A stretch of 64,000 nt of DNA from the NCBI GenBank assembly GCA_964401295.1, contig CAYNXX010000001.1:137076-201075 (forward strand). The letters are read 5' to 3'. Shown in pieces: positions 3,014 through 49,091 of this stretch (within the stretch, counting starts at the first letter, position 1; the number at the start of each line of letters is the position of its first letter). The notes under the pieces were generated by a model. The model did not search any database. It had not been told where the DNA came from and was given only the letters and a program-made list of their open reading frames with translations. This stretch comes from an uncultured Candidatus Saccharibacteria bacterium. GTDB taxonomy: Bacteria; Patescibacteriota; Minisyncoccia; Minisyncoccales; CAYJUL01. A program made the position numbers and the translations under genes.

Positions 3014-3100
3014 GCCCGGGTGGCGAAACTGGCAGACGCACAGGACTCAAAATCCTGCGAGAGCAATCTCATGAGGGTTCAAGTCCCTCCCCGGGCACCA
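3014..3100 (+). tRNA. tRNA-Leu (anticodon CAA), class II with long variable arm, CCA encoded
   Basis: Acceptor GCCCGGG pairs with CCCGGGC. U8 is present. The D-arm GGCGAAACUGGCAGACGC is Leu-like. The anticodon stem is CAGGA/UCCUG with loop CUCAAAA. A long variable arm and T-arm GAGGGUUCAAGUCCCUC are present. The sequence ends A-CCA. Confidence 0.85.
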
Positions 3101-3132
3101 AAACTAACTTTGTCGGAAATGACTGCTCCGCG
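3095..3132 (+). repeat. Copy A of the 37-nt tRNA-3'-end-associated site (gcaccaaaactaactttgtcggaaAtgactgctccgc); one mismatch versus copies B and C
   Basis: Direct comparison with 45085-45121 (same orientation) and 46672-46708 (reverse complement). The single difference (A versus T) falls in the central AATT. Confidence 0.9.
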
Positions 3133-3275
3133 CGCCCCGATAAAAACTGCTAAAGATCTGTAAAAACATCGGCTCGAACCATATTTTGTAAAAGCAGGGG
3201 GGAATTTTTTTTAAAACTGAATACTTGATTCTAAAATCAACAACCTCGCTGATTTTTTGTTTCTGATACAAGCTA

Positions 3276-3348: not shown

Positions 3349-3663
3349 ATGGACCATAGCAACCTTGCAGGTCAGAAGTATTCCCACAGTCAATGTGTTC
3401 ACGGCAGGTGCCTTGACCACGGACCGGAGTGGGAAAACGTCGGTGAAGTGCGGCGCGAGCCCAATCCAGGAATCTTCGGTAAGAAGACCTCCGGGATGAA
3501 CCGTTGCTGCGGCAAGCCGATGACGCAGTACAAAGAAGTGCAGACGCAGCGGTGTCGTAAATGCGGACGTACCAAAGATCACATAACGAACTACCGCCTC
3601 GTATTCTGCCTCTGCTGCGGCTACCACTTCACCAAGTCCGGCAGCTCATTATTTACCCCCTAA
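3349..3663 (+). CDS. Small Cys-rich hypothetical protein P1 (104 aa, 10 Cys, CxxxxC / CC / CxxC / CxCC pattern); visibly GC-rich compared with the host
   Basis: The ORF has a consensus promoter, a strong RBS and an intrinsic terminator. Its G+C is visibly above the ~35-40% of flanking genes. It lies between the tRNA-Leu-associated repeat copy A and the hairpin motif m1. Confidence 0.6.
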   Translation: MDHSNLAGQKYSHSQCVHGRCLDHGPEWENVGEVRREPNPGIFGKKTSGMNRCCGKPMTQYKEVQTQRCRKCGRTKDHITNYRLVFCLCCGYHFTKSGSSLFTP

Positions 3664-3680
3664 TGGTCGAGATGTAACAA

Positions 3681-3722: not shown

Positions 3723-3782
3723 CGTTTTTGAAATTATCCGGTTCGCGGCGAAGCCACTCATTTTTTGTGGGAGTTTCCTCGC

Positions 3783-3816
3783 CGCTGTAGGCGGCGAAAT
3801 GCATTTGAACTATTTT
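3783..3816 (+). repeat. Motif m1: short GC hairpin (cgccgcTGTAGgcggcg) plus the tail aaatgcatttgaactattttaag. It is related to inverted motif m2 at 42868-42901.
   Basis: About 29 of 33 nt are identical to the reverse complement of 42868-42901, and the upstream hairpin is analogous. Both sit at the tRNA-distal end of a GC-rich islet. Confidence 0.6.
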
Positions 3817-3876
3817 AAGAATTGGGTACTACAAAGACGGGCAGAAAGCCCGTCTTTGTGACCGCTCAAATACTAG

Positions 3877-24021: not shown

Positions 24022-27000
24022 TTATATCTTTTGGATACCAAGACGCAACGGCTTGCCATCAACTTTTATCTCTTTGGCTTTTGGATATTTTTTAAAAACG
24101 AGGTCCTTTGCTCGCGTTTCCTGCAGGATTGTTTTTTTGTTTTTGGCGATAATATCCAAAAGCCTGTCTTGGCCTTCGCAAAATATAATTATTGAGTGTT
24201 TCGGTTTAAGACCGGCTCTTTTACGCTCTTCCTGCAGAGTTCTGATAACCTCTCTTATCATGCCTTCTTCTTTAAGCTCTGGCGTAATTTCCGTATCAAG
24301 CGAAAAAGTTTTTCCAAAAATTATATTTTTGACATTTACTTCATCTTTAATAAGTTCCAGCAATTTTTTCTTTTTCTGCAATTCTCTCTGCGCTATCGCA
24401 AGCTCTTTCAACGGCTGCCTCACTTTAATGCCGGCTCTGGCTCTTGCCGCCAGCGCCGCGGCGACGATATCGCGCGCCAAATCCATATCTTTTTCCAATT
24501 CTTGGCTTAATAAGCTTTTCGCAAGCACAGGCCATTTTTCCAGATGCAAACTTTCTTTATATCTGCCTTTTTTTTGGGTGATACGAAGATAAATATCTTC
24601 GGAAATAAATGGCACGAATGGAGCGCAAAGCCTGCAAACGTCGCGCAAGACAGATGCCAACACCGAACATGCAACCTTAGAATCTTTATCTTTTTCTTTT
24701 TTTTGCAAACGGCGCCTTGATCTTCTAATATACCACTGGGACAAATCTTCAATGACAAAATTTTCCAGAGTTCTTGCGGCCTGCATAATATCGTAATTAT
24801 CCAAGCTCGCTGTTACATTTTTTATAGTCGTTTGAAGCTTTGAAAGTATCCACGAATCCAAAACTCCAAGATCTTTTACGGGCGGATTTTTTGTATACTC
24901 TTGCGAATAAGTATCAAAAAATATATAACAATTCCACAGGATTAAAATAAATTTTTTGAACGCTAAATCTATATCTGATTCTTTGAAAAGCTTCGCCTCT
25001 CCCGGCTGGTTAACAGTGTAAAAATACCACCTTACTGCGTCGGCCCCATATTTATCCAACACAGCCCAAGGATTTACGGCATTGCCTTTAGACTTTGACA
25101 TTTTTTCTCCCCTTTCGTCCAAAACATGGCCTAGGGAAATAACGTTTTCATACGGCGCGCTAAATCCTAGTGCGCTTGAAATGGCAAGTAGTGTGTAAAA
25201 CCAGCCCCGCGTCTGGTCTACAGCCTCGGAAATATAATCGGCTGGGAATAATTCTGGCGGATTTAATTTCCGATTTTTGCGCTCACCGACATGCGCGAAT
25301 GGCCAATGACCTTGCGCAAATGGCATTGCTCCGGAATCAAACCAGACATCGCTAACATCTTTAACCCTCTTCATAATCCTGCCGCACTTTTGGCAATAAA
25401 ATTTTACTTCATCAATATATGGGCGGTGCGGATCAAATTGACCTTTTTCATCTAGGGGCACTTTTTTATATTCTACCTTGCGGATTTCTCCAGTACGCGG
25501 CCCGCCGACATTCTGTTTTATTTTCAAGATCCTTTCATCGCTCAAGCCAGCCAGCGTATTTGTAAGCAGCCAAAGCGGATCGCCGTGGCTGACAATCAAA
25601 ATTTTTGAATTTTTATGTTTTTTTTCTATGGAGTCAAGAGCATCAAATACTCTTTTTCTACATTGGCCGTAATTCTCTCCCCCGGCCGGTTTTTTATCAT
25701 AAAACCTATCGAGCTTGAGCGGAAAATCTTGATAAAATCTTTCTTTTGTGCCACCGTGATACCCGCCCAAATTGATATCCCTTAATCTTCGATCAAAAAC
25801 TATTTTAACTCCACCCAGCTCTTTGGAAACTATTTTTGCGCTCTGACGTGTGCGCATAACGTCCGAAGCGTAAATTATGCTTATTTTTTCCTTTTTGAGT
25901 TTCTGCGCGCATTTTCTGATTTGCTTCTCACCCTCTTTGGTCAAAAATACTGGCTCTTTTTCTGGCCACGGATACATAAAAGCTGTTTTTTTTGTCTGAT
26001 ATTCGGTCTGGCCATGACGTATTACATAATATTCATTGGTTGAAAATTTTTTTGAAAATAAATCCTGCTTGGATCCTATTGCGCATACATCTTTGCACTC
26101 AGTGCACTGCCAAAGCGGTAAGGGCGTACCCCAATATCTTTCGCGCGAAAAAGCCCAATCTTTTACTTCTTTAAGCCATTCGCCGAACCTACCTTCTTTA
26201 AGATGCTCCGGAATCCATTTTATTTGTTTGTTATTTTCCAGCAGCCGATCTTTTATCGCTGTTATTTTCACGAACCACGACTCTTTGGCGTAATACAAAA
26301 GCGGCGAGGCGCAACGCCAACAGAAAGGATAATCATGTTCGTATATTTCTTCCCCAAAAAGCAAACCGCGTTTTTTCAAATCTTCTTTAATTAGTTTATC
26401 TGCATCTTTGACAAACAATCCATTCCAGGTATAACCGGGGGTTATCATTTTTCCCTGGCCATCAACGGTCAATAAAATCGGCGCGCTATCGGCATATTTT
26501 TTGACCGCTTCCATATCTTCCTCTCCGAAAGCCGGCGCTATATGAACTAACCCGGTACCCTCATCTTTTGATATAAAATTGCCGGCAATTAAACTATATG
26601 GCTTGAAGTTGGAATCCGAAACGATTGAACCGACATAGAAAGGTTCATATTCCAAACCCAATAACTTTTTGCCATTTATTTCCTGAATAATTTCGCAGTC
26701 TTCTCCTAAAATGTTTAACCTATTCTTGGCTAAAATAAAATTATCATTGCCCTTTTTTGCTTTTACGTAAATAAACTCTGGGTTTACAGCTATGGCAATA
26801 TTGCCAGGCAGCGTCCATGGAGTTGTGGTCCAAACTAAAAGATAGTCATTTTTTTTACCTTTTATCCTAAATTTTATATATATTGCCGGCTCTTTTATTT
26901 TTTTGTATCCGAGTGCTACTTCGTGGCTTGAAAGAGAAGTTCCGCACCGCGGGCAATAGGGCACGACCTTAAAATCTTTGCGCAAAAGTCCTTTTTCCCA

Positions 27001-27480
27001 AACTCTTTTTATGATCCACCATAAAGTTTCAATATAATCGGCTTCGTATGTCACGTATGGATGTTCCATGTCTAGCCAAAAGCCGATTCTTGCAGTTAAT
27101 TTTTCCCATTCTTTTTTATAAAGCCAAACTGATTGTCTGCATTTTTTATTAAATCTGGCAATGCCATATTTTTCTATATCTTTTTTATTTTTTAGACCAA
27201 GTTCCTTTTCTATCTCAAGCTCTACTGGCAGACCATGCGTATCCCAACCGGCCTTGCGCAAAACGCGAAACCCCCGCATGGTTTTATAACGGCATATAAT
27301 ATCTTTATAGACCCTAGCCTCTACGTGATGTATTCCGGGCCGGGCGTTGGCGGTCGGTGGACCCTCATAAAAGACAAAGTCGCGGGCTCTGGCTCGCTGT
27401 TTCACGCTTTTCTCAAAAATCTTGTTTTTCTTCCAATATTTCAGTATTTTTTGTTCTTGTTTTGGGAAATTTATTTCCAT
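24022..27480 (-). CDS. ileS: Isoleucyl-tRNA synthetase (type 2) carrying an inserted histidine-phosphatase (PGAM-like) domain
   Basis: HH/HVEARV, KMSKS and anticodon-binding regions are present. Total length is 1152 aa, longer than usual. Residues ~476-680 contain RHGQTE ... SHG, the histidine phosphatase signature. They lie between LWQCTECK and the conserved HRPYIDEV...CGRIMKRV...VWFDSG segment. Confidence 0.9.
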   Translation of the reverse strand: MEINFPKQEQKILKYWKKNKIFEKSVKQRARARDFVFYEGPPTANARPGIHHVEARVYKDIICRYKTMRGFRVLRKAGWDTHGLPVELEIEKELGLKNKKDIEKYGIARFNKKCRQSVWLYKKEWEKLTARIGFWLDMEHPYVTYEADYIETLWWIIKRVWEKGLLRKDFKVVPYCPRCGTSLSSHEVALGYKKIKEPAIYIKFRIKGKKNDYLLVWTTTPWTLPGNIAIAVNPEFIYVKAKKGNDNFILAKNRLNILGEDCEIIQEINGKKLLGLEYEPFYVGSIVSDSNFKPYSLIAGNFISKDEGTGLVHIAPAFGEEDMEAVKKYADSAPILLTVDGQGKMITPGYTWNGLFVKDADKLIKEDLKKRGLLFGEEIYEHDYPFCWRCASPLLYYAKESWFVKITAIKDRLLENNKQIKWIPEHLKEGRFGEWLKEVKDWAFSRERYWGTPLPLWQCTECKDVCAIGSKQDLFSKKFSTNEYYVIRHGQTEYQTKKTAFMYPWPEKEPVFLTKEGEKQIRKCAQKLKKEKISIIYASDVMRTRQSAKIVSKELGGVKIVFDRRLRDINLGGYHGGTKERFYQDFPLKLDRFYDKKPAGGENYGQCRKRVFDALDSIEKKHKNSKILIVSHGDPLWLLTNTLAGLSDERILKIKQNVGGPRTGEIRKVEYKKVPLDEKGQFDPHRPYIDEVKFYCQKCGRIMKRVKDVSDVWFDSGAMPFAQGHWPFAHVGERKNRKLNPPELFPADYISEAVDQTRGWFYTLLAISSALGFSAPYENVISLGHVLDERGEKMSKSKGNAVNPWAVLDKYGADAVRWYFYTVNQPGEAKLFKESDIDLAFKKFILILWNCYIFFDTYSQEYTKNPPVKDLGVLDSWILSKLQTTIKNVTASLDNYDIMQAARTLENFVIEDLSQWYIRRSRRRLQKKEKDKDSKVACSVLASVLRDVCRLCAPFVPFISEDIYLRITQKKGRYKESLHLEKWPVLAKSLLSQELEKDMDLARDIVAAALAARARAGIKVRQPLKELAIAQRELQKKKKLLELIKDEVNVKNIIFGKTFSLDTEITPELKEEGMIREVIRTLQEERKRAGLKPKHSIIIFCEGQDRLLDIIAKNKKTILQETRAKDLVFKKYPKAKEIKVDGKPLRLGIQKI

Positions 27481-30605: not shown

Positions 30606-31181
30606 TTACACAATCCCATACCCTTGGGAGCAAAGCTCCTTGATAACCCAGGTTTCGACTTCATCCCAATTAACGGCGCGCCAAGTGGGGCGCTGGAAGA
30701 GGGAGACCTTGCCCGCAAGCTCCTCCACAAGCTCGCTCGTTAATTCGGCGTGGACGTACTTCTCCATGCGAGGGTCCTCGTACCATAGCTCCCGGAAAAG
30801 GTTTATGAACCTTTGGTCGCACGACGAGCAGGTAACTGCGAGGAGCTTCTTCTTGCCGCTCGGCTCTACCTTCCACGACGCCCAGAAACAGTCGGACACG
30901 TTGCAGCCGCAGAGAGTGCACTTCTTGATCTTGGAGCGGTATAGATCTACCATACCTTCCAAGACAAGCTTCGTGTGACTCGTGCAGTACCAGTCTTCCT
31001 CCACTCTCCAGTCCGCCCCATCAGGACATGGCTTGTTCGGTGGAAAGGTGCGGAAACTGTCGCCGAAGAAACAGTCGAGGTATAGCTTCCTCTGTTCGGC
31101 TTCGGTCCTGCGCCGGATTATAAGTCTAAACTGCTGCCTGCATCGCTCGACCAACGGTTGAATTTCTTGCGCTGTAGTCAT
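30606..31181 (-). CDS. Cys-rich hypothetical protein P3 (191 aa), GC-rich, very strong RBS (AAAGGAGGUGA)
   Basis: Eleven Cys in CxxC/CSSC-type pairs. G+C is clearly above the host. The consensus SD was read from the sequence. It lies between argS and smpB. Confidence 0.6.
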   Translation of the reverse strand: MTTAQEIQPLVERCRQQFRLIIRRRTEAEQRKLYLDCFFGDSFRTFPPNKPCPDGADWRVEEDWYCTSHTKLVLEGMVDLYRSKIKKCTLCGCNVSDCFWASWKVEPSGKKKLLAVTCSSCDQRFINLFRELWYEDPRMEKYVHAELTSELVEELAGKVSLFQRPTWRAVNWDEVETWVIKELCSQGYGIV

Positions 31182-31387: not shown

Positions 31388-31837
31388 ATGCCCGTCCTGG
31401 CCGAAAATAAAAAAGCCCGCTTCAACTACGAAGTACTGGAATCGTTTGAAGCCGGTATCGTTTTGAAGGGCCAAGAAGTAAAATCAATAAAATCGGGGGG
31501 TATCGCCCTTGCCGGCTCTTATGTTGTTGCCCGCGGCGGCGAAATATGGTTCGTGGGCGCTAATATTCCGCCCTACCAGCCCAAAAATACAACGGCAAAC
31601 TACGATCCCCAGCGGCCGAGAAAATTACTTTTAAAGAAAGAGGAAATAAAGTATTTATTTGGCAGATCCCAGCAGCGAGGCTTGACTTTGGTACCATTAA
31701 GGTTATATACTAAGCAGGGCAGAATAAAATTGGAATTCGGGATCGCCAGACACAAAAAGAAATTCGGAAAAAAACAAACCATTCAAAAAAGGCAGACGCA
31801 AAGAGAAATAGAAAGAGAGCTAAAAACGCGGGGATGA
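31388..31837 (+). CDS. smpB: SsrA-binding protein SmpB
   Basis: The N-terminus reads KKARFNYEVLESFEAGIVLKGQEVKS. Total length is 149 aa. Confidence 0.95.
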   Translation: MPVLAENKKARFNYEVLESFEAGIVLKGQEVKSIKSGGIALAGSYVVARGGEIWFVGANIPPYQPKNTTANYDPQRPRKLLLKKEEIKYLFGRSQQRGLTLVPLRLYTKQGRIKLEFGIARHKKKFGKKQTIQKRQTQREIERELKTRG

Positions 31838-32173
31838 CACAGTTTCGATAGAAGAACTTTTTAAAACATGCGGGCCGAGGCCGATCAAAGCCTCGTTAAA
31901 ATTTGATCAACTAAATAAGTGCCAACTTATTTAACCAACCAGCTTACGCTTTAGCATAAGCCATTTGAAATAATAGATTCTCGATAATTATTTCGGGTGC
32001 AAACCAATCGAGATCGGCGGTTTCTTTGATCTGGAGCGCTGCCGAAAACAACAGATCAAGATGGCGGGCGTTTCGTCCGCTTTCAAGTCCGCCATTTTCC
32101 AAAGTGGACTACACTCGTAGAACTGTTTTAAAAAACATTCTAGACGCGGGGGCAGAACCCGCCATCTCCACCA
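31830..32173 (+). ncRNA. ssrA: tmRNA (ssrA), ~344 nt; tag ORF GCC...TAA encodes (A)NLFNQPAYALA
   Basis: The 5' end GGGGAUGACACAGUUUCGAUAG resembles the E. coli GGGGCUGAUUCUGGAUUCGACGG. It forms a perfect 7-bp acceptor stem with the 3' end ...CAUCUCC-A-CCA, including a G3:U70 pair. A tRNA-like 3' arm GACGCGGGGGCAGAACCCGCC is present. The tag reading frame runs 31921-31959 and ends ...YALA-TAA. The RNA starts within the smpB stop codon. Confidence 0.8.
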
Positions 32174-42544: not shown

Positions 42545-42867
42545 CTCTGCCTCCTTTCATTATTTGCTAACTGCCACGAAATGGCATGGCAGATCGAAAT
42601 CCTCCGCGGGGCTATGAAAACATGCTTGCCCAGGGCGTTTGGGTCGGAAAATTCTTTGACAAGATATTTGCGTCATGCCAGTTATAATTCCTCAGACCGC
42701 CGAAGCTGACGGTGATTCGACCATAGTCAACAGCAACAAAAAACATTTTGTACCTCTTTTTTAAGCTACAACCTGTTAAATATACCAGATTTTATCTTGA
42801 AAGTCAAGAATAAAGACCTGTGCGACGCGCTGGGCTTAAAATATGGCGCAGAATGCTTGAAATAATT

Positions 42868-42901
42868 CGAATGCATTTCGCCGCCGCAAACGGCGGCGAA
42901 A
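42868..42901 (-). repeat. Motif m2: inverted copy of m1 (hairpin cgccgcCGTTTGCggcggcg plus tail aaatgcattcgaattatttcaag)
   Basis: The reverse complement aligns to 3783-3816. It is adjacent to the P4 terminator hairpin at ~42907-42935 (GCGGAAG...CUUCCGC + UUUUU on the minus strand). Confidence 0.6.
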
Positions 42902-42946
42902 CAGAAAAAGCGGAAGTCGAACGGCTTCCGCTAGTCTATAGCAGGG

Positions 42947-43639
42947 TTATTTCTTCTTAACGACCATCTGAAAATCCAGCAAGTCTTTCCCAAGCGTAGC
43001 ATCATTGCGCTTGAGCATGATTTCTTGATAGCCTATCAACTTTCCTGTTTCGTCAACTACCTCCACTAGTCGTGTGTAGTATGGAGCATTATAGCAATCA
43101 CCGCTTTTAAGAATCTGTTCTGCCTCGTAAGCAGTATTGACTCGCCGTTTGTACTCGTCCTTGATATCCTCAAAGACGCCACTAACGCCGATTTCAAGAT
43201 ATTCGGTTTTGTACGAGGCTGAGGTCAATGCCTCAACGGTAAAGTCATACAACCAATAGCGCAATTCTTGCGCCCAATCGCCATTCGCAACTTTCAATTG
43301 AGGAACGCGCTGAATTAATCGGGTAAAGGCATAATTGAACTCCCCGACATACGCTCCCTCATAGTTATACTTAGCACCGACTTCGTAAATTGCTTTTGCA
43401 AGATTCGCTTCACTTGAATCGGCCTCAGATCCCCTAACGACAAAACGAAGACATTGCGCAACTTTGAGGAAAACAGATTTGTAAAATGGAATGGGTGATG
43501 AGCTGCTGTCTATAATGATGGAGTGAAGATGTTGCGCAACTTTGAGGAAAACAGATTTGTAAACCTTAAGGAGCGATAGATTGCTATTTACCCTCGCTAC
43601 AATATCGGCCACAAGCCGCTCTACTGCGGCATCAAGCAC
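42947..43639 (-). CDS. Hypothetical protein P4 (230 aa) with an internal in-frame 81-nt tandem duplication (KSVFLKVAQ..., twice); GC-rich islet cargo
   Basis: The 32-nt strings at 43455-43487 and 43536-43568 are nearly identical. No recognisable domain was found. The start is GTG, with an AGGAGG ~59 nt upstream. Confidence 0.45.
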   Translation of the reverse strand: MLDAAVERLVADIVARVNSNLSLLKVYKSVFLKVAQHLHSIIIDSSSSPIPFYKSVFLKVAQCLRFVVRGSEADSSEANLAKAIYEVGAKYNYEGAYVGEFNYAFTRLIQRVPQLKVANGDWAQELRYWLYDFTVEALTSASYKTEYLEIGVSGVFEDIKDEYKRRVNTAYEAEQILKSGDCYNAPYYTRLVEVVDETGKLIGYQEIMLKRNDATLGKDLLDFQMVVKKK

Positions 43640-44010
43640 TTCGCGATCCGTAGACTTGCCATCAGTCTTTTTGCTTGGTACGTATGGCGTGTTGATAACC
43701 TCCTATTTTAAAGTAGCTATTTGCTAATTGCAAGTTAGCAAAGTGAATTAAGTATATCAATGGGTCGATGGGGTGGGTATAGTATTAAATAAAATTATAA
43801 AAAACTCTTTCGCAAAATGAGACAGCCAGCTGTTTTTTCACCCAAACTACCTTATGATTTAGTTGCCGAGGGACGGCGCGGGAAAGATGGATCGGGGAAG
43901 AATGCCCGTGCCGTCTCGCTTCCGAAAGTTTACGCTGACGGTTGCGAAAACAAATATAAGTAAAGAGTGATGAAAGGATTTGTTTTCACGATGATTATCC
44001 TTTGATATTT

Positions 44011-44060
44011 TAAGAAAATAGAAAGCGCCTTGCGGGTTAATTCGTTCTTCGCGAATTCCG
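44011..44060 (-). terminator. Long nested hairpin (AGCGCCUUGCGG...CCGCAAGGCGCU, 12-bp stem) followed by a U-rich tract on the minus strand; terminator of the HAD pseudogene
   Basis: The inverted repeat was read directly from the sequence. The T-rich run follows on the minus strand. Confidence 0.5.
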
Positions 44061-44098
44061 CAAGGCGCTTGTAGACGAAGCGAAGTTCATCATCATTG

Positions 44099-44800
44099 CT
44101 AGCTGAGGTTCTTGATCGGGGTGGAAACATCGATCTCTCGCCAGTCGAAAAAGATGCGACAAATGCCCGCATCAACTAGCGCGCCTATTGTGATGCCACG
44201 AATCACAACCGGCATCCCAATAGCCTTGGAACCAGCGGCGAGCGCGGCTTTCACGCCCGGTGGCGAATCCTCGAAAACAAGCTGCTCATGGGGATCAATC
44301 TCCATAATTGAGGCAGTTTTCAAGAACACATCCGGCGCCGGTTTTGGGTTCGCGACGTGCTCACGGAGCACAATGTTGCGCTGACCAAAAAGTACCATGA
44401 GACCAGATCGCTCAAGAAGCGTTATCGCGTACTTCTTAGGCGTGAGCGATCCGATTGCGAACTTAAGGCCAAGATTACGCACCTCTCTGAAGAAATCTAA
44501 GAATCCGACGCGGGGCTCGATTGGCATCTCCGCAAGTAGACGTTCGTAGTGAAATTTGTTGCGAGCCAAGATGTCATCGACAGATAAACGATTGCGTGTG
44601 TCGGGATCCAAAAGATCCCGGATATCCTCGCATACCTTTTCGTCAGGTCCACCGATGAAGTGAGGAAGCTTGCTATAGGCTTCGTCGAGCGAGATCCTAA
44701 GTCCTAATTCGCTTGCGACGGCGAGATGTCCGTTATGGTGAGCGACCTCGACATCAACAACAGTGCCTTAGAGATCAAAGGCGATTCCACGAATAGGCAT
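44099..44800 (-). pseudogene. HAD-superfamily hydrolase (beta-phosphoglucomutase-like) interrupted by an in-frame TAA inside the catalytic DxDGT motif (MPIRGIAFDL*GTVVD)
   Basis: The ATG at 44800 gives MPIRGIAFDL, then TAA at 44768-44770. The same frame then continues GTVVD...DSPPGVKAALAAG to 44099. Motifs II-IV are intact. Confidence 0.7.
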
Positions 44801-45084
44801 TACCCATCTCCTTCTTTCTGGATTTTAACTGTCAAGGAACGATCATATAATAACAGAGTTGAATTTAAATGTAAATAGTTAACAAAACAGAGTCCGTAAG
44901 AAATTCTGCGATAAAATCATATGAAATTTTTCTTATCAGTTCTAAAAACCGTCGGCGCAAACTTTTGGGGGCAACGACAGTGCGGGAATTTGCCTCCCCT
45001 CGCCCCCTGTCTTTCCCACCAGAGCGGTTTGGGATTTTACGAAATGCCGCATCAAAAAAGGTTCGCGCGAAATGTATAATTACA

Positions 45085-45156
45085 GCACCAAAACTAACTT
45101 TGTCGGAATTGACTGCTCCGCTTTTGTTTTTGCCGTAAAATCCCAGAGTTCGCCCC
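45085..45156 (+). repeat. Left terminal inverted repeat (copy B, 72 nt) of the recombinase module
   Basis: Nucleotides 1-36 are identical to the reverse complement of 46673-46708. Nucleotides 37-72 match the reverse complement of 46591-46626 with one mismatch. Confidence 0.9.
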
Positions 45157-45165
45157 AATAACCAT

Positions 45166-46769
45166 ATGAAAGAGCTCAAACCAAAAACTCAATGCATTCT
45201 CTATGCTCGGAAATCAACCGAGGAGGATGATAAGCAAGTGATGAGCATAGAAGCTCAACTGTTTGAATTGCGCGAATTTGCCGAGCGAGAACGCATTGAG
45301 ATAATCCGTGAGTTCACGGAAGCGGAAAGCGCAAAGAAACCCGGACGAGAGGAATTTGCCAAAATGCTTTCCTTAATTGAAATAAGCAAAAAGCCGCTCG
45401 GCATTTTGGCATGGCACCCCGATCGTCTCGCCCGCAATAGCGTGGACGGCGGCAGAATCATTTATCTCGTGGACACCGGAGCTATTGCTTCTTTGCGCTT
45501 TCCGCAATTTTGGTTTGAGCCAACTCCGCAAGGGAAATTCATGTTGCAAGTGGCGTTCGGGCAATCAAAGTATTTCTCGGATAACTTGGTTGAAAATGTG
45601 AAGCGCGGTATCCGCCAAAAACTCAGCCGCGGCGAATGGCTGACGCTCGCTCCTTTGGGATATGTGAACAACTACAAAATACGGAACATTGACCCGCACC
45701 CTACTTACGCAAAAGTCATCAAGCGAGCGTTTGAAGAGTACGCCACGGGAAAATATACGCTCGTCGGTTTAGCGGAGTTTTTAGCGGGGCATGGCGTTGT
45801 TCAGAAAAAAGGAACGCCACTTGCAAAAGTTTCCGTCGTGAAAATGCTTACTAACCGAGCATATCTAGGATTTGTAAAATTTCATGGCGAATACCACGAC
45901 GGAAACTTTGAGCCGATTCTTTCCCCGACACTGTTTGAAGCAGTACAGAAAGTATTGAAAAGCAAGCAAAGACCGCGCAAACAGAAAGAGCGATACGATT
46001 TCCCTTTTACGCAGTTTGCGCGGTGCGGCGAGTGCGGAAATATGATTACGGCGCAGTATGCCACCAATCGCTGGGGCACGCGCTATACTTACTACCGTTG
46101 CACCAAGAAAAGCGGGCATTGTAGCCAGCCGTATCTTTCCGCCGATACGCTCGCCGCCCAAGCGCAAACCCTGTTTCAATCAGTGTCGCTTCCTCTCGCG
46201 GAAATTGAGGTTATGGAAAAGCAGATTGACACACGGGAGAAAGAAGAAATTTCCGCGAGAGGAGATGTTGCCCAAAATCTTAAAGCAAAACTCAAGAGGC
46301 GCAGGAGAAGCTAGGCCGGCTTGTCTCGCTCTATTTGGACGACGACATCGAACGAGAACTCTATCTCACAAAGAAAGACGCGCTCCTTCGCCAAAAAGCC
46401 AAGCTGGAAGAAAGTTTGGGAGATTTTGGGCAACAGGGAAAGAATCAGCTCGAACCCTTGCGGAGTTTCGTTTTGTCCTTGAGAGAAGCGGAAAAAGTGG
46501 CGCAAACAAAAAATCACGCCGACTGGCGCAACTTTTTCCGTTCGCTCGGCTCTAACCCCGAGATCAAGGATAAAACGCTTTCAATCAACTGGGGCGAACT
46601 CTGGGATTTTACGGCGAAAACAAAAGCGGATTTTGCCCTGCGGAGCGAGCCGTCCGCCGCGCGGACGGCGAGCGGAGCAGTCAATTCCGACAAAGTTAGT
46701 TTTGGTGCGCCTACGAGGATTCGAACCCCGATCTCGAGCTCCGGAAGCTCGTGTTCTATCCATTAAACT
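45166..46769 (+). pseudogene. Large serine recombinase (resolvase/invertase N-domain, recombinase domain, zinc ribbon, coiled-coil) with a -1 frameshift near 46294-46296
   Basis: The N-terminus reads CILYARKSTEEDDKQ...SIEAQ, containing the catalytic Ser. The C4 zinc ribbon reads CGECGNMITAQY...YYRCTKK. Frame 1 ends ...KAKLKRRRRS* at 46314. The coiled-coil continues in frame 0 (..KEAQEKLGRLVSLYLDDDIERELYL...). Restoring one A in 'ctcaagag' joins the two. Combined length is ~534 aa. Confidence 0.75.
46591..46708 (-). repeat. Right terminal inverted repeat (copy C) with a 46-nt GC-rich palindromic insertion (GCCGUCCG-CCGCG-CGGACGGC)
   Basis: See copy B. The outer end begins at the GCACCA 3' end of tRNA-Arg. 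Confidence 0.9.
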
Positions 46770-46777
46770 ATGGGCGC
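46703..46777 (-). tRNA. tRNA-Arg (anticodon CCG), CCA encoded
   Basis: The reverse complement is GCGCCCAUAGUUUAAUGGAUAGAACACGAGCUUCCGGAGCUCGAGAUCGGGGUUCGAAUCCUCGUAGGCGCACCA. The fold is a cloverleaf with anticodon loop UUCCGGA and a T-loop UUCGAAU. There is one C:A mismatch in the acceptor stem. Confidence 0.8.
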
Positions 46778-46792
46778 AGGATAATTTTTATA

Positions 46793-47482
46793 TTATTTTT
46801 CAGCGACGAAATAAAAGTTTTGTCGGCTGCCGGTTTGGCTGCGGATTGTTCCGATTTGCCTCATTTTAAATCCGGCGCTCTTTGCCAACCAGTTTAATTC
46901 AATTTTTGTGAAGCAGTGATAATAACGATTTGTTTTATCTGACCAAGGTTCCCAGATGTCTCCAAAATCCAATTTTGAAAATCCAAATATTTTTAAAATC
47001 CCGAATTTAATTCTTAAATATATCTCCTTTAGCCAACAGAATTTCCAAACCGTAACAATTAAAAGCCCGCCGGATTTTAAAACTCTTTTCGCTTCCAGTA
47101 AAAATTGTTTTCTGAATTCATTTGATGGAATATGATGTAAAACCGCAATGCTGTAAATTTTATCAAACTGGTTCTCTGAAAATAGTAATTTTAAAGATTC
47201 GCTTGTTTTAAATTCGTATTCGGGATATTTTTTTTTAGCGATTTCGACCAATTTTTCTGAAGTATCTACGCCAATATAAGAAATTTTTCTATTTTTCAAA
47301 AATTCAATCAATCTTCCATTGCCGCAGCCCAAATCCAAAACATTGTCGCCCGGCAACGCATAATCCATAAGAGGTCCAAGTTCCAACCAAGGCTTTTCTC
47401 TTGTCCTTGAAAAATCTTCGGCAATCAGGTTATAATCCTCTCTGACCCTATTTAAAAGGTAGTCTGCGTAATTTTTATCCAT
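46793..47482 (-). CDS. Class I SAM-dependent methyltransferase (likely start MDKNYADYL)
   Basis: The SAM-binding motif reads VLDLGCGNGRL. The ORF is open to 47581. Confidence 0.75.
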   Translation of the reverse strand: MDKNYADYLLNRVREDYNLIAEDFSRTREKPWLELGPLMDYALPGDNVLDLGCGNGRLIEFLKNRKISYIGVDTSEKLVEIAKKKYPEYEFKTSESLKLLFSENQFDKIYSIAVLHHIPSNEFRKQFLLEAKRVLKSGGLLIVTVWKFCWLKEIYLRIKFGILKIFGFSKLDFGDIWEPWSDKTNRYYHCFTKIELNWLAKSAGFKMRQIGTIRSQTGSRQNFYFVAEK

Positions 47483-49091
47483 GACGATTGCGGAGTTTAC
47501 AATTAAAGAATTAATGAAGGGCGAAGCGCGCGAAGCGCGGAACCTTGCCGCCATTAAGAGAAAGGCGGCCAAAAAATACAAAATGCCCTGTCCGAAAAAC
47601 TCAAAACTACTCCAAGCATATCACGACTTGGTGCTAAATAAAAACATGATTGCAGATAAAAATTTGGAGCTGCTTTTGCGCAAAAGAAAGGTAAGATCAC
47701 TTTCGGGAGTGGCCGTAGTTTCTATCCTTACAAGGCCATATCCATGCGGCGGAAGGTGCATTTACTGTCCAACGCAATCAGGCGTGCCTAAAAGTTATTT
47801 AGACGGCGAACCTGCTGTAATGAGAGCTTTATCGCATAATTATGATCCTAAGGAGCAAATACTATCCCGAATAAAAACATTGGAAGCCAACGGCCACCCA
47901 ACCGACAAAATAGATTTAAGGATTATCGGCGGAACGTGGTCTTATAATCCAAGACGCTACCAATCCTGGTTTATTAAAAAGTGCTTTGAGGCCGTGAATG
48001 AACTTAGTAGAATCAGAAATCCGAAAAATGCTAATCTTAACCGTCTTCAAACTTTAAACGAAAAAGCCAAATACAGAATTGTAGGCATAAATGTTGAAAC
48101 AAGGCCTGATTATATAAACCGGGGGGAAATAGTACGCATGCGAAAACTCGGCATAACGCAAATAGAACTCGGCGTGCAAAGCGTATATGAAGATGTGCTG
48201 AAATTAAACCGGCGAGGCCATGGCGTAGATACGGTTATCAATACCACAAAACTTTTAAAAGATGCTGGATTCAAAATTTGCTATCACATAATGTCTAATC
48301 TCCCAGGATCAACTCCGAAAAAAGACATTAAAACATTCGAAGAAATTTTTTTCAATCCCGATTTCCAACCGGACCATATTAAAATATATCCCTGCGCTCT
48401 GGTAAAAGAAGCTCCTCTTTATTGGCTGAAAGATAAAATCGGCTACCGCCCATATTCGGCAAAAAAACTCGTCGCCATTATAAAAGAGGGTAAAAAATAT
48501 ATCCCTTATTATTGCCGCATACAGCGCGTTATCAGAGACATACCGGCAACATACATCATTGAAGGCGGAACTGCGATTTCAAACCTAAGACAAGTCGTAA
48601 GTGATGAAATGAAAAAAGAAGGGTCAAGATGCCGGTGTATACGCTGCCGAGAAGTAAAAGAAAATTACGACGCGGGCGAAAAGATATATCTCTTCCGCCA
48701 GGACTATGAAGCGTCCGACGGCAGGGAAATTTTCCTAAGTTTTGAAAATAAAAACAGGACGAAATTGCTCAGCTTGCTTCGACTGCGCATCCCTTCTTAT
48801 ATTTTTTGCAAAAAAAATAAATCTCTCTTCACGACGCTGAAAAATTCCGCCTTTATACGCGAAATACATACTTATGGCCAACTGCAGCCATTAACTGCTG
48901 CGGCGCTCCACAAAAACTCGCCGCAACATAAAGGCCTTGGGAAACAATTGATGCGAGAGGCCGAAAAAATAACACTTAGCTTCGGACTGCAAAAAATTGC
49001 AGTTATTTCAGCTGTCGGCACAAGAGAATATTACAGAAAATTCGGATACCAACTCCAAAATACTTACATGATAAAAAATTTACGCAATTAA
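47481..49091 (+). CDS. elp3: Elp3-like radical-SAM/GNAT tRNA modification enzyme (tRNA uridine(34) acetyltransferase homolog)
   Basis: The radical-SAM motif reads CGGRCIYC. The C-terminal GNAT motif reads QHKGLGKQLMREAE. Total length is 536 aa. Confidence 0.8.
   Translation: MTIAEFTIKELMKGEAREARNLAAIKRKAAKKYKMPCPKNSKLLQAYHDLVLNKNMIADKNLELLLRKRKVRSLSGVAVVSILTRPYPCGGRCIYCPTQSGVPKSYLDGEPAVMRALSHNYDPKEQILSRIKTLEANGHPTDKIDLRIIGGTWSYNPRRYQSWFIKKCFEAVNELSRIRNPKNANLNRLQTLNEKAKYRIVGINVETRPDYINRGEIVRMRKLGITQIELGVQSVYEDVLKLNRRGHGVDTVINTTKLLKDAGFKICYHIMSNLPGSTPKKDIKTFEEIFFNPDFQPDHIKIYPCALVKEAPLYWLKDKIGYRPYSAKKLVAIIKEGKKYIPYYCRIQRVIRDIPATYIIEGGTAISNLRQVVSDEMKKEGSRCRCIRCREVKENYDAGEKIYLFRQDYEASDGREIFLSFENKNRTKLLSLLRLRIPSYIFCKKNKSLFTTLKNSAFIREIHTYGQLQPLTAAALHKNSPQHKGLGKQLMREAEKITLSFGLQKIAVISAVGTREYYRKFGYQLQNTYMIKNLRN

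Follow-up and report, generated by a model that had tools for sequence, protein, structure and literature searches.

A probable recent nonsense pseudogene of the HAD-IA hydrolase family on a decaying tRNA-associated islet

In the stretch of metagenomic DNA analyzed here (64,000 nucleotides, hereafter the window), a gene encoding a HAD-family hydrolase is interrupted by a TAA codon within catalytic motif I, and its reading frame continues past this codon to the end of the protein. Has the gene been inactivated recently, is the stop a sequencing error, or is TAA read through in this organism? These three options were left side by side by a preliminary description of the locus. Among them we favor recent nonsense pseudogenization, and regard it as very likely that the gene is a genuine, recent GAA>TAA pseudogene located on an immobilized, decaying islet integrated at a tRNA gene. 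The UvrB protein encoded in the window is 60–68% identical at the amino acid level to its closest relatives, which bear the names Paceibacteria, Parcubacteria or Nealsonbacteria; on this placement, the host is a divergent Paceibacteria (CPR) lineage.

The HAD gene occupies positions 44099..44800 of the minus strand and comprises 233 sense codons and one internal stop, as recognized by translation, Pfam and NCBIfam matches and comparison with orthologs. Its frame opens with ATG (44800-44798), meets TAA at 44770-44768, continues through 222 sense codons and closes with TAG (44101-44099). It is free of frameshifts and of any further stop beyond the TAA, which bears out the initial claim of a HAD frame broken once at motif I and otherwise intact over ~230 codons. 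The 10 codons preceding the stop (MPIRGIAFDL) agree in full with the family consensus and with the N-terminus of L002, an ortholog, and are thus part of the gene. With the stop masked, the translation scores 54.0 bits against the HAD_2 profile (PF13419; gathering threshold 23.8) and 54.8 bits against Hydrolase (PF00702; gathering threshold 26.4), with E about 1e-14. Of the NCBIfam models, TIGR01509 (HAD-IA) is matched above its cutoff (46.1 vs 29.4 bits), and TIGR01990 (beta-phosphoglucomutase; 70.5 vs 189.4 bits) and TIGR02009 (beta-PGM family hydrolase; 87.8 vs 153.35 bits) below theirs. By these cutoffs the predicted product belongs to HAD-IA only and would not be classed as a beta-phosphoglucomutase. 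The motif I nucleophile D9, near-invariant across the family, is encoded 5' of the stop, and the motif II S118 (IGSLT), motif III K153 and motif IV E177-D178 (FEDSP), invariant or near-invariant in an alignment of 31 homologs, are all kept in the window copy.

The signals flanking the gene also appear to be in place. A Shine-Dalgarno sequence (AAGGAG; 44808..44813, minus strand), read from the sequence, lies 7 nt 5' of the ATG, and a consensus scan detected a candidate sigma-70-like promoter at 44847..44875 (minus strand; TTTACA, 17-nt spacer, TATTAT, extended TG), a consensus match at 10 of 12 positions. Folding points to an intrinsic terminator at 44012..44070 (minus strand), composed of a 19-pair hairpin followed by a U-rich tract; its folding energy is −28.9 kcal/mol (z = −4.5), and none of 200 shuffled sequences was equally stable. 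A hairpin spanning the TAA itself was rejected as the HAD terminator in favor of this one, being a chance match of a simple terminator scan.

The stop at codon 11 (44768..44770, minus strand) corresponds to a plus-strand C>A change at 44770 and replaces the family-conserved Glu located two residues past the motif I Asp (Asp+2). E11 lies within the FDLEGT motif and is near-invariant in the alignment of 31 homologs. The comparison with orthologs proposed in the preliminary description revealed a sense Glu codon at this position in all 28 loci compared at the DNA level (GAA in 21, GAG in seven). In the beta-phosphoglucomutase of Lactococcus, FDL-D10-G aligns with the FDL-E11-G of the HAD protein, D10 being the Asp+2 general acid/base. 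Hence, the notion that the stop replaces the second Asp of a DxDGT motif is right as to the position and wrong as to the residue, and the GAT (Asp) codon thought to have preceded it is not what the orthologs possess. With GAA as the ancestral codon, the stop requires no more than one G>T transversion (GAA>TAA), hence one substitution and not two. Absence of Asp at Asp+2 is a family-level variant (Glu in the orthologs), to which the window copy, with TAA, adds the loss of the residue.

A search of 5.8 billion proteins yielded 879 homologs of the HAD protein. The best full-length ones are 232–236 aa in size, 70–77% identical and derive from Patescibacteria metagenomes, while the more distant relatives include DPANN archaea. 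Members of the CPR/DPANN group annotated as "HAD family phosphatase" (e.g., P0009, P0019, and P0033; Patescibacteria, Woesearchaeota and Nanoarchaeota MAGs) have the same length and the same FDLEGT motif as the window gene; their copies are all intact, and the stop occurs in the window copy only. Glu in place of Asp at Asp+2 was present in every ortholog examined in the CPR/DPANN HAD-IA family (L002-L033, P0001-P0120). The gene context of this group differs from that of the window: L031-L033 carry EamA-HAD operons, and L003 a methyltransferase gene together with ELP3. The usual neighbors of HAD orthologs encode an EamA transporter, an inositol monophosphatase and a nucleotidyl-transferase. We found no remnants of EamA, the operon partner in L031-L033, 5' of the window HAD gene. 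Among solved structures the best match is the beta-phosphoglucomutase of Lactococcus lactis (PDB 1lvh, 6hdi and others; HAD-IA, C1 cap; E about 1e-13 over residues 4–196). The two share the motif order of FDLxG (I), Ser/Thr (II), Lys (III) and (E)D (IV); they differ by low sequence identity and by the Glu that takes the acid/base position throughout the HAD family considered here. The beta-PGM-like fold family, taken with the EamA, inositol-phosphatase and nucleotidyl-transferase neighbors in relatives, indicates that the substrate was probably a sugar phosphate. In many other hosts the GC content of the HAD family genes exceeds that of their flanks, by up to +0.20, which, along with the sharing of the family between Patescibacteria and DPANN, suggests frequent lateral transfer. 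The Glu acid/base variant and this apparent mobility are minor but useful points.

How old is the lesion? Out of 86 alignment columns conserved at 90% or more, the window HAD deviates at a single one (L>P near the C-terminus), and intact orthologs at 0–16. Such preservation of conserved residues, combined with the intact promoter-like site, Shine-Dalgarno sequence and terminator, argues that the lesion is very young. In the course of events that we propose, a G>T transversion would have turned the Glu-11 codon GAA into TAA, two residues past the Asp-9 nucleophile, and translation would now yield a peptide of 10 residues. Initiation at the sole in-frame start beyond the stop, a TTG at 44611, would produce a 170-aa fragment devoid of motif I. 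Neither the peptide nor the fragment could form an active HAD enzyme. The gene would count as cargo of, or at the least as an immediate passenger on, an approximately 3.9-kb GC-rich islet at the 3' CCA end of tRNA-Arg(CCG), which inactivation of its recombinase by a 1-nt deletion would have left immobilized and decaying. As for the population, we infer that the stop is fixed.

The alternative that survives best is that of a base-call or consensus error, or of a minority allele. Most cells would then carry GAA and a functional HAD gene, TAA being an artifact or a low-frequency variant. It would agree with the single-base nature of the difference in an otherwise pristine gene and with the origin of the window from a 237-kb NCBI contig that was assembled from a metagenome. 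Likewise, no independent second strain with the TAA allele was found in JGI metagenomes, where a search with a 31-nt pattern that left the first base of the stop free gave no matches, neither to the GAA nor to the TAA allele. Yet, the independent Logan assembly, made from raw reads, has the same base here. Its contig L001 (SRR5161795; two samples) is 100% identical to the window over positions ~43,534-45,081 (~1.5 kb), TAA at codon 11 included, which makes an assembler or polishing artifact unlikely; the support for TAA thus comes from two assemblies, the NCBI MAG and Logan, which may share source reads. Both ends of the Logan contig fall exactly at repeats, as expected of a de Bruijn assembler. 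Moreover, short-read consensus sequences seldom contain substitution errors, and gene breakage of the kind that errors would cause is absent elsewhere in the window, where coding density is 85% and the housekeeping genes are full length. The adjacent islet recombinase gene is disrupted too, which fits real decay. We therefore consider an error or minor variant unlikely.

Much less probable is that a truncated product has acquired a new, non-catalytic role. The residual 170-aa ORF starting from the TTG (44099..44611, minus strand) is what public gene callers report; it equals the public protein P0007, recorded both from the 237-kb NCBI contig and from Logan, and retains the cap domain with motifs II–IV. 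However, HAD catalysis requires motif I, and this ORF lacks it together with the nucleophile Asp-9 and Thr-13. No Shine-Dalgarno sequence is evident before TTG 44611, and no homologs starting at this position were found in the search, except for obviously partial fragments at contig ends. For annotation purposes, P0007 is best regarded as a pseudogene fragment, and the adjoining recombinase gene as a pseudogene as well.

The weakest alternative is recoding, i.e., reading of TAA as sense by reassignment, a suppressor tRNA or programmed read-through, with a full-length HAD protein being made. Translation table 11 gives 51 long ORFs that do not overlap and together account for 85% of the window; the main terminator among them is TAA, which ends 36. 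IleS, LeuS, MetG, ArgS, GlmS, UvrB, PolX, and RtcB align with their profiles from one end to the other (GlmS with residues 1–614 against the whole profile, 601/601), and UvrB (to profile position 652/653) and PolX (567/571) end at TAA where the profile ends. Thus, over the 64 kb of genome examined, TAA is neither rare as a terminator nor found in-frame within many conserved genes, and the housekeeping genes, which the preliminary description had suggested searching for such codons, are uninterrupted. The only RNA genes detected by ARAGORN and Rfam in the window are tRNA-Leu(CAA), tRNA-Arg(CCG) and one tmRNA, with no suppressor tRNA among them. TAA followed by G is an efficient stop context, and we know of no natural TAA recoding in bacteria. 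The perfectly kept frame past the stop and the location of the stop at a catalytic position speak for recoding, but the former is equally explained by the recency of the lesion and the HAD orthologs all have an ordinary Glu codon, so we dismiss this reading as extremely improbable and do not take the HAD stop as evidence that CPR bacteria recode stop codons.

Some further features of the window were recorded along with its housekeeping and RNA genes. The IleS ORF (24022-27480, minus strand, 1152 aa) contains an inserted histidine-phosphatase (cobC/phosphoglycerate-mutase-like) domain at residues ~485–660, where it separates the two halves of the match to IleS. The tmRNA gene (31830-32173, plus strand; Rfam 108 bits) was missed by ARAGORN; it shares its first 8 nt with the end of the listed ORF 31388-31837. 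Close to it lies a 191-aa ORF (30606-31181, minus strand) that is the strongest compositional outlier of the window (GC 0.545, GC3 0.70, z = 4.6); tmRNA genes are classic integration hotspots.

Placement of the HAD pseudogene in a GC-rich islet, as originally described, is supported by its composition and by the adjoining recombinase and tRNA genes. The HAD gene has a GC content of 0.52 and GC3 of 0.56 (z about 2.4), compared with a window mean GC of 0.42; the GC content of the recombinase gene is 0.48–0.52, and the GC and GC3 z-scores of both genes range from 2.3 to 2.6. GC falls sharply at about 44,000 and 46,780. We delimit the islet, termed islet B, to positions 42844-46708 (~3.9 kb). It adjoins the 3' end of tRNA-Arg(CCG), its insertion site, and contains a DUF6899 ORF, the HAD gene and the recombinase gene. 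Its integration target, tRNA-Arg(CCG) (46703..46777, minus strand; ARAGORN, Rfam tRNA 62 bits), overlaps by its 3' GCACCA the outer end of a repeat arm (the P arm). At the proposed far, attL-like end (42844..42901, plus strand), a TGGCGC core-like hexamer precedes a motif designated P' (TTGAAATAATTCGAATGCATTTCGCCGCC), shared with L061 and L074, and a GC hairpin. The left boundary we infer from this P' motif, found in only 3 of 54 sources. In sum, the attributes of a tRNA-integrated islet are found together: a fusion of the P arm to GCACCA, a recombinase gene, P' (42850-42901) with the TGGCGC core-like repeat, and deviating GC. In the predicted empty site, ...GGGCTTAAAATATGG would run directly into TGCGCCTACGAGGATTCGAACC..., and in the predicted P-P' circle, ...GTTAGTTTTGGTGC would be followed by AGAATGCTTGAAATAATTCGAATGC....

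The recombinase gene (45166..46766, plus strand) encodes a large serine recombinase, with the Pfam domains Resolvase, Recombinase and Zn_ribbon_recom all present, and is disrupted, as three-frame translation shows. A 1-nt deletion at about 46291-46293, ahead of the coiled-coil/C-terminal region, splits the ORF: frame 1 stops at 46312-46314 and the remainder is in frame 3. After restoration of the frame, 97% of the protein aligns at 92% identity with P0124, an intact homolog of 517 aa, continuously across the junction, over which it also aligns gap-free with intact homologs of 513–545 aa. It is, therefore, a large serine recombinase by descent that is no longer intact, and this lesion supports the earlier suggestion that the islet DNA is decaying. 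In intact relatives, the recombinase gene is located between perfect 119-nt inverted repeats, forming a 1,671-bp unit, to which the window unit is 87.5% identical at the nucleotide level over 45,052-46,709. This identity is to elements of unrelated metagenomes, whereas the best relative of the host UvrB reaches 68% at the amino acid level.

In the window, the right inverted-repeat arm, or P arm (46590..46708), keeps its 119 nt, encodes the recombinase C-terminus and is fused by its outer end to the 3' end of the tRNA. The left arm (45085..45157) is shortened to 73 nt from the 119 nt of the relatives. The right arm includes a 40-nt GC-rich hairpin block (CCGTCCGCCGCGCGGACGG, 46631-46670) that intact relatives possess in each arm; its absence from the left arm of the window points to a left-arm deletion as a third lesion of the islet. 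In most family members the inner repeat is followed by the X1 module, here at 45047..45084 (TGTAATTATACA-TTCGCGCGAACC-TTTTTTGA on the minus strand), and the homology with other elements stops at this module (33–38 nt in the family).

Exact copies of the outer repeat end (32 nt) are present in 49 metagenome loci. Of 60 ends examined in the family, 29 have it joined to the CCA at the 3' terminus of a tRNA gene. The target tRNAs of the family include Leu (five anticodons), Val, Ile and Tyr, with Arg in the window. The recombinase family (window 45047-46709; L034-L086) is widespread in Patescibacteria, with more than 6,900 homologs and some clusters of 70–131 member sequences; many of its contigs are only 1.7–1.9 kb in size. 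In the window itself, the P arm occurs three times (3095, 45085, and 46687) and P' twice (3790-3809, minus strand, and 42866-42885, plus strand), with 0.00 copies expected by chance in either case. In L061 and L074, P' and the P arm directly adjoin each other, forming an attP-like junction. At the two tRNAs of the window, the P and P' copies are mirror images of each other, which defines two islets, A and B. Islet A is a ~0.7-kb recombinase-less scar at the 3' end of tRNA-Leu(CAA) (3014-3100), extending from 3095 to about 3830. It consists of a 42-nt P-arm remnant abutting the tRNA (3095-3136), a small GC-rich, Cys-rich ORF of about 104 aa (3351-3665) that has a Shine-Dalgarno sequence and a terminator of its own, and, at about 3772-3830, the P' motif in inverted form. 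Relatives differ in the orientation of the recombinase segment with respect to the cargo-side module, both orientations being represented (L052 vs L053 and L075). The pair L047/L048 was discarded as proof of same-site inversion: the shared sequence stops after 269 nt, and one contig is possibly chimeric.

Between the far end of the islet and the HAD gene lies the DUF6899-domain ORF (42947..43639, minus strand; 230 aa, PF21840 38 bits), with a host-like GC content of 0.44, which is probably a second cargo gene. It contains a 66-nt direct repeat of family D1 (43447-43512/43525-43590, 77% identical) encoding a repeated KSVFLKVAQ(H/C)L, within which the Logan contig breaks. We hold with moderate confidence that HAD is cargo of islet B, noting the rarity of P' in the family and the host-like GC of the DUF6899 ORF; neither HAD nor DUF6899 was found as cargo in the 53 other loci of the recombinase family. 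Just past the islet, the window carries a methyltransferase gene (46793-47581) and an ELP3-type gene (47481-49091). In L003 (1-3212), a HAD ortholog of 72% identity directly precedes a methyltransferase gene and an ELP3-like radical-SAM/GNAT gene, in the orientation opposite to that of the window and with no tRNA or recombinase gene between them. This synteny hints that the residence of HAD at the locus is possibly older. We nevertheless ranked the reading of HAD as a native neighbor of the methyltransferase and ELP3 genes below the cargo model, on account of the composition, the identity of HAD (72%) against that of ELP3 (42%) and the P/P' boundary motifs.

The recombinase elements are of more interest than the HAD stop itself. 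It is possible, if somewhat doubtful, that they constitute an undescribed family of mobile elements of Patescibacteria. Such a family would be characterized by 119-nt perfect inverted repeats, one arm of which encodes the C-terminus of the recombinase, by recombination between the outer repeat end and the CCA ends of many tRNAs, by an inner inverted attP-like copy that lets the segment flip, and by recombinase-less mini-derivatives such as the 0.7-kb tRNA-Leu scar, with the HAD pseudogene as decaying cargo. In the searchable literature we found no description of the present recombinase family, which targets tRNA CCA ends; it could be a tractable example of gene flow in CPR genomes.

Among known systems, the invertible segments of the Hin/Gin type likewise carry a serine recombinase gene between inverted repeats, and here, too, both orientations exist among relatives. 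Hin and Gin are small serine recombinases acting at 26-bp sites. Unlike these, the elements described here are integrated at tRNA genes and possess a large serine recombinase of ~520 aa and repeats of 119 nt, one arm of which encodes its C-terminus; inversion is seen in them only as differences in orientation. The nearest concept is that of tycheposons, with which our elements share small size, a site-specific integrase, metabolic cargo and insertion at tRNA 3' ends, as well as degenerate recombinase-less remnants beside other tRNAs, although the likeness is architectural only (bioRxiv 10.1101/2020.12.28.424599). Tycheposons mostly employ tyrosine recombinases (910/937), each specific for one tRNA (bioRxiv 10.1101/2020.12.28.424599). 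In contrast, the present family has a large serine recombinase, uses many different tRNAs and brackets the recombinase gene with 119-nt perfect inverted repeats, and no replication module is seen in the 3.9-kb islet B.

The HAD stop, in turn, belongs with the pseudogenes of decaying genomic islands in general, which are likewise marked by foreign composition, insertion next to a tRNA gene, an inactivated integrase and a cargo gene with a single lesion. A single-hit nonsense pseudogene on a decaying islet is an ordinary, already known phenomenon, and what sets the present case apart is only its small-genome CPR host and the extreme youth of the lesion.
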